Source: an uncultured archaeon (lineage in GTDB: Archaea > Thermoplasmatota > Penumbrarchaeia > JASLWR01). From it: a stretch of DNA of 34,627 nt. A program made the position numbers and the translations under genes. The notes under the pieces are model-generated. The model was not told the origin of the DNA. It worked only from the letters and a program-made list of their open reading frames with translations, and searched no databases. The stretch spans positions 33,948 through 68,574 of the forward strand of contig CAYFHS010000022.1 in the NCBI GenBank assembly GCA_964342815.1, given 5' to 3'. Shown here piece after piece: positions 1 through 4,292 of this stretch. Every line of letters starts with the position of its first letter. Position 1 is the stretch's first letter.

Positions 1-141
1 TCCTTCCTTCTTCTTTTCCTTTTTCTCTTTTTTCTCCGCCTTTTTCGCCTTTTCTACTTTCTTTTTATCCTTTTTGCTTGTTTTTTTTCCTTCCTTCTTC
101 TTTTCCTTTTTCTCTTTTTTCTCCGCCTTTTTCGCCTTTTC
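1..141 (-). repeat. 87-bp (29-aa) direct repeat at the window edge, encoding EKAKKAEKKEKKEKKKEG...
   Basis: Positions 1-54 are repeated at 88-141. Confidence 0.85.
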
Positions 142-1203
142 TTTTTTCTTAACTATTTCCTTTTTTGGGGCGATTATATCCTTTACAACTTTTGCCCTAC
201 GCGTTCCGAAAACCTTAATTAAACCAACCCATCCTCCGTCTTTATAAGCTGCTTCAGCATTATTCAGATCCTTTTCTGAGGGTATCCAATTAACTTTTAT
301 TCTCTCTTTTTTCCCCGTCTTTTTAACTTTATCTTTTTTTGGCCGCCCGCGCTTTTTTTTCTCCGCCTTTTCCGTTTTCTTTTTCTCTTTCTTTTCAGCT
401 TTTTTAGTTTTTTCTTCTTTCTTTTTATCCTTTTTGCCGGCCTTTTTTATCTTTTTTTCTTTCTTTGCTTTTTCCTTTTTGGGCCGCCCGCGTTTTTTTT
501 TCTCTGCCTTTTCCGTTTTCTTTTTCTCTTTCTTTTCAGCTTTTTTCGTTTTTTCTTCCTTCTTTTTTTCCTTTTTACCGGCCTTTTTTATTTTTTCTTT
601 CTTCTTAACTTTTTCCTTTTTGGGCCGCCCACGCTTTTTTTTCTCTGCCTTTTCCGTTTTCTTTTTCTCTTTCTTTTCAGCTTTTTTCGTTTTTTCTTCA
701 TTCTTTGTTTTTTCTTTTTTAGGCCGCCCGCGCTTTTTTTTCTCCACCTTTTCCTCCTTTTTTGGGGCAATTATATCCTTTACCACTTTTGCCTTACGGG
801 TTCCGAAAACCTTCATAAGGCCCCTCCATCCGCCATCTTTATAAGCGATCTTACCCTTTTTGATATCATCCTCGGATGGTTTCCATTCTTCCTTTTTCTT
901 ATCTTCCCTTTCCTTCTTTTTCGATTTCTCTTTTTTCTCCTCTTTTTTTACCTTTTCTTCTTTAGAATGTTTGCTCTTTTTCTTTTCCTTTTTTTTCTTC
1001 TTTTCATCTCCAGACCAGGACACACTAATGGTTACTTTCCCATCTTTTCCGGAATCTTTTCCCTTTACCTTTACTTTGAAAATATCATTTGATTCTATGA
1101 TCCAACCGTGTTCACCGAAATAAGCGTTCAATGTCCCCTCAAAAAATGGTATCAATGCTTTTCTATTCATCTTTTTTTCGATTTTCATCTCGCTTTTTGC
1201 CAT
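1..1203 (-). CDS. Lys-rich, AT-hook-containing repetitive protein, putative nucleic-acid/chromatin-binding; 3'-truncated by the window edge; not in the supplied ORF track
   Basis: Manual translation of the minus-strand frame whose codons coincide with + triplets 1-3, 4-6 and so on. No stop between ATG 1203 (alternative ATG 1209) and position 1. Begins MAKSEMKIEKKMNRKALIPFFEGTLNAYFGEHGW..., then K/E-rich tracts, four KKKRGRPKK motifs and two copies of a 44-aa module. Lys 161/401 by manual count. A purine-rich AAGGGA lies just upstream of ATG 1203. Confidence 0.9.
   Translation of the reverse strand, partial: MAKSEMKIEKKMNRKALIPFFEGTLNAYFGEHGWIIESNDIFKVKVKGKDSGKDGKVTISVSWSGDEKKKKKEKKKSKHSKEEKVKKEEKKEKSKKKEREDKKKEEWKPSEDDIKKGKIAYKDGGWRGLMKVFGTRKAKVVKDIIAPKKEEKVEKKKRGRPKKEKTKNEEKTKKAEKKEKKKTEKAEKKKRGRPKKEKVKKKEKIKKAGKKEKKKEEKTKKAEKKEKKKTEKAEKKKRGRPKKEKAKKEKKIKKAGKKDKKKEEKTKKAEKKEKKKTEKAEKKKRGRPKKDKVKKTGKKERIKVNWIPSEKDLNNAEAAYKDGGWVGLIKVFGTRRAKVVKDIIAPKKEIVKKKEKAKKAEKKEKKEKKKEGKKTSKKDKKKVEKAKKAEKKEKKEKKKEG
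157..885 (-). repeat. Two copies of a 132-bp / 44-aa module (754-885 and 157-288; 597 bp apart)
   Basis: WKPSEDDIKKGKIAYKDGGWRGLMKVFGTRKAKVVKDIIAPKKE vs WIPSEKDLNNAEAAYKDGGWVGLIKVFGTRRAKVVKDIIAPKKE; 33/44 identical by manual count. Confidence 0.9.
340..732 (-). repeat. Intragenic tandem repeat of AT-hook units (RGRP codons at 721-732, 622-633, 481-492, 340-351; spacings 99, 141, 141 bp)
   Basis: Near-identical DNA units such as ggccgccc(g/a)cg(c/t)tttttt recur. Spacings are multiples of 3 (33, 47, 47 aa). Confidence 0.9.
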
Positions 1204-1579
1204 AAACATCCCTTCATTAAACTTTTATTATTAATAATAATATAATTGTGGGTAATCTATCGAATTTATATTAATATTTTCATTACTTTATTTTCGGATT
1301 TATTATTAATAAAATACATTTTTTAATGAGAGTTTACATTATTTCAAACATGGCCAGTATCTTCTTTATTCCTAGATAAAAGGTAAAATAGATCATAAAA
1401 ATAATGAAACTAAAAATTATGATTATTTTAATAATATTAATTATTATTAATTATCCAAAAATAAATTATCCTTTCGTATTTCCCAAATGAAAAAAAATAA
1501 GTAAAAGGATTAATACGATAATATGAAATAGCTACTGGTAACTGATATACTCCTGAATCCGCAAAGAGCAAATTGTCCC

Positions 1580-1592: not shown

Positions 1593-4292
1593 TTGACAAA
1601 TTTGACCCCCCTTATGAAACAATACCTTGACATTAAAAAGGATTATCAAAATTGCGTACTGTTCTATCGCATGGGAGATTTCTACGAAATGTTCTACGAT
1701 GATGCCAAGGTGGCATCCAAAGAGCTTGATATAGTCCTCACATCCAGGGGTTTAGATAGGAATGGAAAAAAAATACCCCTGGCAGGAATTCCTTATCACG
1801 CGGTTGACAGTTATTTAACTCGAATGGTGAAAAGGGGCTATCACGTAGCAATCTGCGAGCAGGTGGAGGACCCGAAGCTCGCCAAGGGTATTGTCAAAAG
1901 GGAGGTGATCCGGGTGGTAACACCCGGTACGGTACTCGAGAGCAATCTCCTTTCGGACAACAGCAACAATTATCTGATCGGGATAACCAGAAGCGGAATG
2001 AATTATGGTATCGCAGTGGTGGATGTTTCAACTGGTGAATTCTTTACAACACAACTCGAGGGAAACGATGCCGAAAGCAAATTAACTAGTGAGATATTGC
2101 GCTTCGATCCCGCCGAATGCATTCTCCCAGAGAGCCTGGTCAATGACTCAGATTTCCTGAAGAAACTGCAGAACATCTCAAAGGTTGCTGTAACCCCTTT
2201 CAGCGACCAGTTTTTTGAGGCCACCATTGCATACAAGAATCTCGTGGATCATTACAACGTTATAAGTCTTGAGGGCATGGGATGCGAGAACATGCCTCTC
2301 GCAATCGAAGCCGCAGGCGGGGTCCTCTCCTATTTGAGAGATACTCAAATGTCGGGTTTGGAGCATCTTCATGTGCTTTCCACGTATTTTATGAATGATT
2401 ACATGGTACTGGACGGAGCAACCTTGAGGAATCTTGAACTGGCGAAGAACATAATCGATGGAACGAAGAAAGGGACTCTCCTTGACATTCTCGACAGTAC
2501 CGTATCGGCAATGGGTGCGCGTTTGCTGCGAAAGTGGCTCACCCGCCCGCTTCTGGACTTGGACAAAATAAAACAGCGCCTGGATGCAGTGGAAGAACTT
2601 GGAACAAATAATTTTTTACGCCATGACCTGAGAGAACAGTTGAACAAGATACTGGACCTCGAAAGACTGATCGGAAGGGTGGTGTACGGATCTGCTAATG
2701 CAAGAGACTTGGTAGCCATAAAGTTGTCACTGAAAAAGATACCCCGTATAATATCACTGCTGGATGAATGCAAACCACCTCTAGAGGGATATTTGCTTCG
2801 TAACATCATGCACAACCTTGACCCATTAAGTGATCTGGTGGATAGTATTGACAGAGCCATTGTCGATGATCCCCCATTGACGGTTAGGGAGGGTGGTATG
2901 GTGGAGACCGGCTATGACGAATATCTCGACACCTTGCGGGATATTACAAAAAAAGGGCGAACCTGGATTAAGAAGCTTGAAGAGGACGAGAGGGAACGGA
3001 CGAAGATCCCGAATCTCAGGGTCAAATACAACAAAATATTCGGGTACTTCATTGAGATTACCCAGACACACAAGGAGCTGGTCCCCGAGGACTACAATCT
3101 CAAACAAACGCTGAAGAACAGAGAACGGTACGTCACCCCCGAGTTGAAACGGAAAGAGGAAGAAGTAATTTCGGCAAAAGACAAGATCGAAACATTGGAA
3201 TACGAGATATTCTGCCGCATCCGGGATGAAGTAGCGTCCAAGGCTGTGAAGATACAGCATGTTGCTGCCATCGTCGCAAAGCTCGATGTCCTAGCAACTT
3301 TCGCCCATGTTTCCGTGCTAAACGGATATGTTAAGCCAAACCTATACAACAATGATGAACTGCATATCAAGGGTGGCCGGCATCCCGTGGTGGAGAGCAT
3401 GATCGAGGATTCCTTCATACCTAATGATACAGACCTTGATCTCGATGACAACCAATTAATAGTTATAACCGGTCCCAATATGAGCGGCAAATCGACCTAT
3501 ATGCGCCAGGTGGCACTGATAGTCATCATGGCGCAGATGGGATGTTTCATTCCGGCGGAAGAAGTTCATATTGGATTATGTGACAGGGTTTTCACCAGAG
3601 TTGGAGCTCATGATGACCTGGCCAGGGGGCAGTCAACTTTCATGGTTGAGATGATAGAGCTGGCAAATATTCTCAATTCCGCCTCATCACGATCCCTGAT
3701 AATTCTGGATGAGGTAGGACGGGGAACATCCACATTCGACGGCCTATCCATTGCCTGGGCAGTGTCCGAATATATTCATAACAGGGATTCTGTGGGAGCA
3801 AAATGCCTCTTTGCCACTCATTATCATCACCTGACTGAACTGGAAAAGGCACTTTCTAGGGTAAAGAATTTTCATCTCACTGCCAAACATATGGATGATG
3901 ACATTATCTTTATTAGAAAGATCAAGCCAGGTGGAACCGACAAAAGTTATGGAATAGACGTGGCAAAATTGGCTGGCCTCCCTATTTCCGTCATCGAAAG
4001 AGCAAAGGAAGTACTCCTGAAGATCGAGGAGGCAAACGTATTGGGGGTTAATCGTGAAGAAAAACTCGTTAAAGTCAGAAAGACCGACCGGGTGAGGTTC
4101 ACCGATGAGATTACAAAAGCCAAGGCCGGATTTACCCAGACATTACTTTTCTCCCCCAAGGAGGAAAAAGAACCGGATGCAGTTGTTGAAAAGATAAAGA
4201 CACTGGATCTGGATCATTTAAGACCCGTTGAGGCGCTTCTGGAACTTTATCAGCTTCAAAAAGAAATATTCAAGAGAGATAAGACCGGTTAA
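1593..4292 (+). CDS. mutS: DNA mismatch repair protein MutS (MutS1)
   Basis: TPLMKQY, FYRMGDFYEMF mismatch-binding motif, Walker A GPNMSGKST, STFMVEM, LDEVGRGTSTFDG, FATHYH, SYGIDVAKLAGLP; 899 aa. Confidence 0.98.
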   Translation: MTNLTPLMKQYLDIKKDYQNCVLFYRMGDFYEMFYDDAKVASKELDIVLTSRGLDRNGKKIPLAGIPYHAVDSYLTRMVKRGYHVAICEQVEDPKLAKGIVKREVIRVVTPGTVLESNLLSDNSNNYLIGITRSGMNYGIAVVDVSTGEFFTTQLEGNDAESKLTSEILRFDPAECILPESLVNDSDFLKKLQNISKVAVTPFSDQFFEATIAYKNLVDHYNVISLEGMGCENMPLAIEAAGGVLSYLRDTQMSGLEHLHVLSTYFMNDYMVLDGATLRNLELAKNIIDGTKKGTLLDILDSTVSAMGARLLRKWLTRPLLDLDKIKQRLDAVEELGTNNFLRHDLREQLNKILDLERLIGRVVYGSANARDLVAIKLSLKKIPRIISLLDECKPPLEGYLLRNIMHNLDPLSDLVDSIDRAIVDDPPLTVREGGMVETGYDEYLDTLRDITKKGRTWIKKLEEDERERTKIPNLRVKYNKIFGYFIEITQTHKELVPEDYNLKQTLKNRERYVTPELKRKEEEVISAKDKIETLEYEIFCRIRDEVASKAVKIQHVAAIVAKLDVLATFAHVSVLNGYVKPNLYNNDELHIKGGRHPVVESMIEDSFIPNDTDLDLDDNQLIVITGPNMSGKSTYMRQVALIVIMAQMGCFIPAEEVHIGLCDRVFTRVGAHDDLARGQSTFMVEMIELANILNSASSRSLIILDEVGRGTSTFDGLSIAWAVSEYIHNRDSVGAKCLFATHYHHLTELEKALSRVKNFHLTAKHMDDDIIFIRKIKPGGTDKSYGIDVAKLAGLPISVIERAKEVLLKIEEANVLGVNREEKLVKVRKTDRVRFTDEITKAKAGFTQTLLFSPKEEKEPDAVVEKIKTLDLDHLRPVEALLELYQLQKEIFKRDKTG

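Follow-up and report, generated by a model that had tools for sequence, protein, structure and literature searches.

The lysine-rich gene at the left end of the window

We analysed a 34,627-nt stretch of DNA (C22:33948-68574, called the window below) from an uncultured marine archaeon of the Thermoplasmatota, whose assembly of 4.35 Mb in 116 contigs is 88.9% complete. The subject of this study is the gene at the left end of the window, which is read from the minus strand and encodes a lysine-rich protein with several AT-hooks. An earlier note on this DNA had described a stop-free minus-strand open reading frame (ORF) of at least 401 codons that leaves the window, with a product of about 40% lysine and four KKKRGRPKK motifs. 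All of this held: positions 1-1203 (−) translate to 401 residues without a single stop codon, the frame 1..1209 (−) is open at its 3′ end, and the four motifs were counted in a product consisting of 40.1% lysine, 14.5% glutamate and 6.0% alanine, with a net charge of +103. Stops number 21 and 31 in the remaining two minus-strand frames of window 1-1203, and 5000 mononucleotide shuffles of this segment did not yield a single stop-free frame. When the contig was extended to the left, as the earlier note had proposed, the 401 N-terminal codons (1..1203, −) were found to continue across a 100-N scaffold gap (C22:33848-33947; L006 9849-9948) directly adjacent to the window, beyond which the frame resumes for 57 lysine-rich codons and ends with a TAA at C22:33674-33676. 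The gene thus encodes at least 460 aa. The gap falls inside its lysine-rich repeat, the same repeat being present on either side, and the copy numbers of hooks and repeats are therefore uncertain in this assembly.

Much of the coding sequence is repetitive. The RGRP cores lie at residues 158, 191, 238 and 285, that is, with spacings of 33, 47 and 47 residues, and hooks 2-4 together with their K/E spacers are carried by a tandem repeat of 141 nt (47 codons; 318..706, −; 2.8 copies, 91% identity). Units 2 and 3 of this repeat differ by 8 synonymous and 4 non-synonymous codons. The lysine-rich C-terminal tail (1..159, −) contains an 87-nt repeat that extends across the assembly gap. At the other end of the gene, a Shine–Dalgarno-like GAAGGGA (1210..1216, −) is positioned 6 nt 5′ of the ATG at 1203 and is identical at the orthologous locus described below. 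An A/T block, AAAATATTAATATAAATTCG (1261..1283, −; ∼60-80 nt upstream of the start), is likewise identical between the window and the orthologous contig L033 (alignment A6) and is a candidate TATA/BRE promoter element. Both lie in a spacer of ∼380 bp with ∼80% A+T and conserved blocks, which the gene shares with a divergent mutS. The latter (1593-4292, +) encodes a complete bacterial-type MutS of 899 aa with domains I-V.

The same chromosomal place was found in a second organism. P0012, a complete and ungapped orthologue of 497 aa on the JGI metagenome contig L033, is encoded divergently from a MutS that shares 93% identity with the one in the window. Over the N-terminal domain and two three-helix modules (see below), the two orthologues show 0.114 non-synonymous (dN) and 0.92 synonymous (dS) substitutions per site (dN/dS 0.12), compared with a dN of 0.038, a dS of 1.17 and a dN/dS of 0.03 for MutS, while the linkers differ by indels and by repeat number. 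Judged by these codon substitutions, the parts predicted to fold are under purifying selection. For the family as a whole, chromosomal synteny was observed beside mutS in two related organisms and beside a PAS/DUF835 gene in two others, and neither integrase nor viral genes were found around the lysine-rich gene of the window. It is virtually certain that this is a real protein-coding gene that is conserved and syntenic. A chance ORF in purine-rich DNA is ruled out by the stop distribution, the shuffles, the orthologues and the dN/dS values, and eukaryotic contamination by the chromosomal synteny with prokaryotic genes, which is kept in the second organism.

AT-hooks and predicted folded units

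The RGRP motifs had been taken for AT-hooks, and the search with PF02178 agreed, matching the product in four stretches with 20.6 bits against a cut-off of 17.4; up to an E-value of 10, the Pfam scan of the window product returned nothing besides AT_hook. Hook 1 (715..741, −) directly follows the first three-helix module, a position that is kept in the four relatives P0012, P0011, P0006 and P0003. Hooks 2 (616..642, −), 3 (475..501, −) and 4 (334..360, −) each match both Pfam AT_hook and the motif, and all four hooks read KKKRGRPKK. EKKKRGRPKKE-type hooks are also present in P0012, P0011 (three), P0006 (two) and P0003 (two), at equivalent places after the module. As sequence motifs, the hooks are therefore canonical and conserved across the four closest relatives. 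Insertion into the minor groove of A/T tracts is established for the motif and, by analogy, would be expected here. Across 401 genomes of the phylum, a KRGRPKK coding pattern occurs four times in the window's genome and once or twice in seven others, the latter being approximately at the level of a reversed-pattern control (5 hits).

According to the earlier note, the protein would be intrinsically disordered. This is not simply so, as a beta/alpha N-terminal domain and two three-helix modules are predicted in addition to the disordered segments. The N-terminal domain (residues 1-66; 1006..1203, −) is predicted to adopt a beta-alpha-beta4 arrangement, with strands at residues 7-13, 27-30, 33-36, 42-50 and 54-63 and a helix at residues 14-24 in the AlphaFold2 (AF2) model. 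The predicted local distance difference test (pLDDT) scores of this model are low (50-67) because only four sequences were at hand. Two Trp residues of the domain, W34 and W63, do not vary among five relatives (alignment A5). The domain is followed by a K/E-rich linker (residues 67-103; 895..1005, −) that is predicted to be disordered and varies in length and sequence among orthologues; pLDDT falls below 50 over residues 63-103, and the other linkers and the tail are predicted to be disordered as well.

On comparison with known families, the N-terminal domain can tentatively be called amphi-Trp-like. The orthologue P0002, from genome G002, passes the cut-off of NCBIfam TIGR04354 (36.8 bits, cut-off 31) and stays below that of Pfam PF20068 (23.1 bits, cut-off 27), for which P0004 scores 16.8 bits; the window's own domain and that of P0012 match neither model. 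A profile of the close copies of the domain finds the P0002 domain over its full length with 21.5 bits. Using shallow profiles, hhalign gave a probability of 2.8% against three canonical amphi-Trp members. A word search with the domain alone returned no homologue, and a Protein Atlas feature search with it no usable match. Amphi-Trp proteins (TIGR04354/PF20068) are a family of unknown function, and the sole mention of them that we found in the literature is in a proteomics study. They resemble the N-terminal domain in their ∼65-aa length, in the predicted order of strands and helix and in two conserved Trp residues, whereas typical members are short and, unlike the window protein, carry neither modules nor hooks. 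Two genes of G005, a genome of a related family (L044 1171-1731, −; L047 1099-1887, −), encode canonical amphi-Trp domains with C-terminal extensions: in one protein a (KKKD)n / K-E tail, in another a helical tail that by eye is HhH-like (DUF4332-like). Amphi-Trp domains thus seem often to be joined to tails that bind nucleic acids.

The three-helix module is a unit of 43 aa that occurs twice in the assembled part of the protein. Copy 1 (residues 107-149; 757..885, −) scores 81.7 bits against the module profile and has the pattern W-x18-W followed by FGTR-K/R-A/G-K, with a pLDDT of 85-90; copy 2 (residues 306-348; 160..288, −) scores 78.8 bits. Over 48 codons, the two copies differ at 12 synonymous and 14 non-synonymous positions. 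With 14 aligned copies as input, AF2 predicted a compact structure with a pLDDT of 85, rising to ∼90 in a longer model, and two DSSP readings combined place the helices at approximately 8-21, 23-30 and 32-42 of the module. W23, G31, K36 and K39 are invariant, the third helix thus containing invariant lysines. Of the two Trp residues that are 19 apart (W107 and W126 in copy 1), the second is invariant; P0002, P0005 and P0009 have lost the first, and the third position is Ile, Leu or Val.

A search with VIA-align against 48,161 PDB representatives gave a best Z of 4.1, and more than 20 of the best 50 matches were Myb/SANT domains (Z 3.0-4.1), including those of Cdc5, Reb1, c-Myb, TRF1/2, ARR1, PHR and LUX. 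The rest were mostly homeodomains or helix-turn-helix (HTH) domains of the Tc3/Hin type. The best Foldseek matches of the module were also Myb domains, with E-values above 6. At the sequence level, the module matched nothing in Pfam, NCBIfam, PHROGs or the PDB sequences: one of 14 module copies came closest to a Myb profile, with Myb_DNA-bind_6 at E 0.09-0.12, profiles A1, A2 and A3 drew chance-level matches only from the PDB sequences, and PHROGs yielded nothing for the module, the N-terminal domain or P0009. A fold search of the viral models in BFVD returned nothing at E ≤0.001 and one of the Atlas only generic small HTH or helical proteins, and a Protein Atlas feature search with the module gave no usable match. 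Three helices are thus predicted with confidence, and the weak structural matches suggest an HTH-like fold closest to Myb/SANT domains and homeodomains, with no profile match to support homology to Myb/SANT. With the Myb/SANT and homeodomain repeats (c-Myb R1-R3, TRF1/TRF2, Cdc5, Reb1), the module has in common the three helices, the tandem arrangement, the Trp residues 19 apart and the basic third helix; it differs from them in lacking a sequence-profile match, in the aliphatic residue at the third Trp position and in a first Trp that is not invariant. The 43-aa module is a new small domain family.

Relatives and genomic setting

An exhaustive HMMER search of 1.84 billion representative sequences with the module profile found only nine proteins. 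Five of them have the same architecture as the window protein, namely P0002 (G002), P0004 (G003), P0006 and the fragments P0003 and P0008, and in P0006 and P0003 AT-hooks immediately follow the module, as in the window. The others are of different kinds. One is a fusion to ParB_N and HTH_ParB, whose contig also has an integrase and numerous small unknown ORFs; another is a ResIII/Helicase_C helicase that ends in three module copies (L028). There is also a short SSB fusion on a contig of 573 nt, to be taken with caution as its match to the SSB profile is confined to the second half of the latter, and a module-bearing protein on a 31-kb virus-like contig with an MCM, a DNA methylase and a faint tail-tube match. 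The module is a conserved folded unit that the window protein shares with DNA-handling proteins of mobile elements. On L028 (3354-5794, +), a gene for a PLD-family nuclease is followed by that for the helicase, beside BrxA and BrxB, a context resembling a defence island.

The spread of the family is narrow. Among 37 species genomes of the class, the module was detected in three of the four belonging to the window's family and in none of the 33 others. The module-free genome, G001, is of the same genus and also lacks the N-terminal part of the neighbouring mutS; as this region is not assembled there, its absence is uninformative. A word search with the whole protein retrieved P0011 and P0006 only, one with residues 1-165 of P0012 retrieved P0011 only, and a scan of the genome collection retrieved the G003 contig only. 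No relative was found among the IMG/VR viral contigs with profile A1. Within the family, the copy numbers vary: four hooks and two modules in the window protein, two hooks and three modules in P0012, three hooks and two modules in P0011, no hook and at least four modules in the G003 orthologue as seen between assembly gaps, and no hook and two modules in the G002 orthologue, which runs off the end of its contig. The G003 orthologue is broken by three scaffold gaps like the one on C22. In short-read assemblies, the repeat-rich genes of this family are systematically broken up, and the small number of recorded relatives may be due to this.

P0011 (392 aa), which was found by word search, contains one extra C-terminal domain in addition to its hooks and modules. 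This domain of ∼60 aa (residues ∼285-350) follows its second module and is also found, with 43% identity, in the window's genome (G000:C1:322401-322580 and C23:22094-22276), where it forms the end of the cytoplasmic tail in two giant surface proteins with PKD repeats, encoded by open frames of 1159 and 2084 aa. It could link the DNA-binding family to membrane proteins.

The genome of the window encodes Alba (C10:27054-27236), in line with its archaeal origin; HU was not found in it. Its only match to the histone-fold model PF00808 is weak (22.7 bits) and belongs to an atypical protein of 218 aa on C20 (L007 1111-1767, −), which appears to consist of two histone-fold-like halves. An ordinary short HMf-type histone was not detected in this genome. 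Such a set, with Alba, no HU and one atypical histone fold, leaves room for an additional architectural protein without constituting proof of one. We also noted other lysine-rich proteins. The genes at C38:33652-34653 (−), C18:52218-53627 (+) and C7:70985-71773 (−) encode ribosomal protein S3 and a GrpE-like protein with lysine-rich extensions, both identified by eye from their translations, and a K/E-rich protein of 263 aa without an evident domain. A further protein (C29:21422-22321, −) has a long K/A/P-rich tail with KPxKK/AKK repeats and looks more like the C-terminal domain of H1 than the AT-hook protein does.

To the left of the window lies a gene for a 1256-aa protein (L006 2584-6354, +) with N-terminal WD40 repeats, Ig-like repeats, a transmembrane segment and a Pro/Gln-rich cytoplasmic tail. 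This is followed by genes for a charged-tailed membrane protein of 573 aa and for a protein resembling the formylglycine-generating enzyme (all read by eye from the translations).

Possible function and comparison with known systems

We consider it likely that the protein binds DNA. It is also fairly probable, if less so, that it is a multivalent, strongly basic protein that binds AT-rich DNA and is associated with the nucleoid; a general nucleoid or architectural role is more tentative, with slightly less than an even chance in our estimate. In such a protein, the RGRP hooks would insert into the minor groove of A/T tracts, and the HTH-like modules with their invariant lysine-rich third helix may contribute further DNA contacts, as suggested by their fold and by the fusion partners of the module. 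The lysine-rich linkers and the tail would neutralise phosphate charge, enabling one molecule to span or bridge several sites, and the amphi-Trp-like N-terminal domain would be a putative point of anchoring or self-association. The net effect could be that AT-rich DNA is coated, bent or bridged, in a genome of 45% GC mainly at intergenic and promoter spacers, with the protein acting as a nucleoid-associated architectural or silencing factor.

Several observations weigh against this interpretation. The fold matches of the module are weak (Z ≤4.1; Foldseek E >6), small bundles of three helices are common, and no sequence link of the module to any DNA-binding family emerged from the Pfam and PDB profile searches. 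The assembled parts of the same-family orthologues P0004 (G003) and P0002 (G002) contain no RGRP, which means that the family does not depend on the hooks. So-called 'extended AT-hooks', in which the basic flanks are long, bind RNA as well. Lysine-rich tails are widespread in this genome, for instance on ribosomal protein S3 and GrpE, and since they are a general habit, lysine content alone is weak evidence. Moreover, the genome has a GC content of 45.4% and only 1.2% of its 200-bp windows are below 30% GC; strongly AT-rich targets are therefore limited and would mostly be spacers such as the gene's own.

In one alternative, the protein would bind RNA or associate with ribonucleoproteins, for example as an RNA chaperone or in ribosome assembly, its K/E tracts and long-flanked hooks contacting structured RNA rather than DNA. 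A content of 40% lysine and 14.5% glutamate resembles the KKE/D-type tracts of nucleolar proteins, and extended AT-hooks prefer RNA; several of the weak fold matches are ribosomal proteins, and lysine tails occur on translation-related proteins of the genome such as S3. However, the partners of the module handle DNA (ParB, the ResIII helicase, SSB), its other context is the virus-like contig with MCM and a methylase, and the hook core with immediate KK flanks is of the canonical DNA type and scores above the Pfam cut-off. Profile scans with Pfam and NCBIfam also detected no RNA-binding domain. We regard an RNA-directed function as unlikely. In a second alternative, this would be a factor related to mobile elements that was captured by the host, or the reverse, with the module serving as a protein-protein adaptor on a shared replication or partition hub and the protein acting in plasmid or virus maintenance or in defence rather than in general chromatin. 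Four of the nine module representatives were found in contexts of this kind (ParB/integrase, MCM/methylase, helicase/PLD/BrxA/BrxB and SSB), the family is tiny and patchy (three of four genomes of one family, none of the 33 others of the class), and its hooks and modules vary rapidly in number. The gene itself, by contrast, is under purifying selection and has stable chromosomal synteny, with mutS in two organisms and PAS/DUF835 in two others, and no integrase or viral genes lie nearby. We give this alternative a low probability.

A sequence-specific transcription regulator, in which the HTH-like modules would read an operator, the hooks would add affinity and the AT-rich spacer might serve autoregulation, appears more improbable still. 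Its appeal lies in the fold matches, which are mostly sequence-specific Myb and homeodomain factors, and in the conserved blocks of the ∼380-bp, ∼80% A+T spacer before the gene; tandem Myb-type repeats combined with AT-hooks are also a familiar layout of eukaryotic transcription factors. A fixed operator geometry, on the other hand, fits poorly with a charge of +103 and with close relatives in which repeat-driven variation has left two, three, four or more modules and between zero and four hooks; a repeated operator-like motif was not found, no search aimed at one having been made. Our preferred interpretation remains the multivalent protein that would bind AT-rich DNA in the nucleoid. A bolder version of it seems less likely than not: the protein could be a lineage-specific archaeal chromatin protein of new architecture, a functional analogue of bacterial xenogeneic silencers or of eukaryotic HMGA/H1, that targets AT-rich, promoter or foreign DNA through its hooks and a new HTH-like module, which viruses and plasmids of the same hosts would also deploy on ParB, helicase and SSB, perhaps to gain access to that DNA or to compete for it.

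If this version were true, Archaea would have their first nucleoid protein based on AT-hooks, and the module would represent a new family of DNA-binding domains. Accounts of archaeal chromatin usually centre on histones and Alba, along with a few small proteins restricted to particular lineages. A different design, nearer to HMGA/H1 or to the bacterial silencers of AT-rich DNA, would be added by a long and multivalent protein made of canonical AT-hooks and a so far unnamed three-helix module. Through this module, a chromosomal protein is in addition tied to the ParB, helicase and SSB proteins that archaeal mobile elements encode, which could offer a handle on virus-host interplay at the level of DNA. 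As the protein is short and the complete sequence of P0012 (L033) is at hand, the DNA-binding claims are directly testable even though the organism is uncultured.

The earlier note had supposed that such a protein was undescribed in archaea, and our literature searches on archaeal AT-hook chromatin and nucleoid proteins indeed gave none. Its likeness to HMGA holds for the hooks and no further. As in HMGA (HMG-I/Y), there are several canonical AT-hooks with basic flanks in flexible, charged sequence, and the expected mode of action would be alike, that is, multivalent minor-groove binding to A/T tracts. HMGA itself is a wholly disordered protein of ∼100 aa with three hooks and an acidic C-terminal tail, whereas the window protein of ∼500 aa has no acidic tail and combines an amphi-Trp-like domain with two or three three-helix modules, both predicted to fold, and a lysine tail. 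Nothing beyond the motif indicates common descent with HMGA. The proposed likeness to H1 can be kept for composition: linker histone H1, chlamydial Hc1/Hc2 and AlgP-type tails have the same extreme lysine content and long basic tail, with an expected charge-neutralising condensation of DNA. It does not extend to the globular domain, as neither the winged-helix GH1 (PF00538) nor Hc1/Hc2 was matched in Pfam up to an E-value of 10, and the linkers are K/E-rich instead of K/A/P-rich.

Among prokaryotic proteins, Myxococcus CarD is similar in that a folded N-terminal domain is joined to a basic region with four RGRP hooks. The N-terminal domain of CarD is the RNA-polymerase-interacting CarD_TRCF domain, followed by an acidic stretch; no Pfam match to CarD_TRCF was obtained for the window protein. 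The bacterial xenogeneic silencers (H-NS, Lsr2, MvaT, Rok) have no homology to the window protein and provide an analogy only, consisting of an AT-hook-like minor-groove element, a linker, a second domain and the bridging or coating of DNA. To our knowledge, there is no such silencer of AT-rich DNA in archaea. Seen against these systems, DNA binding by AT-hook proteins is known; the novelty lies in how this protein is built, in its occurrence in an archaeon and in the family of 43-aa modules.

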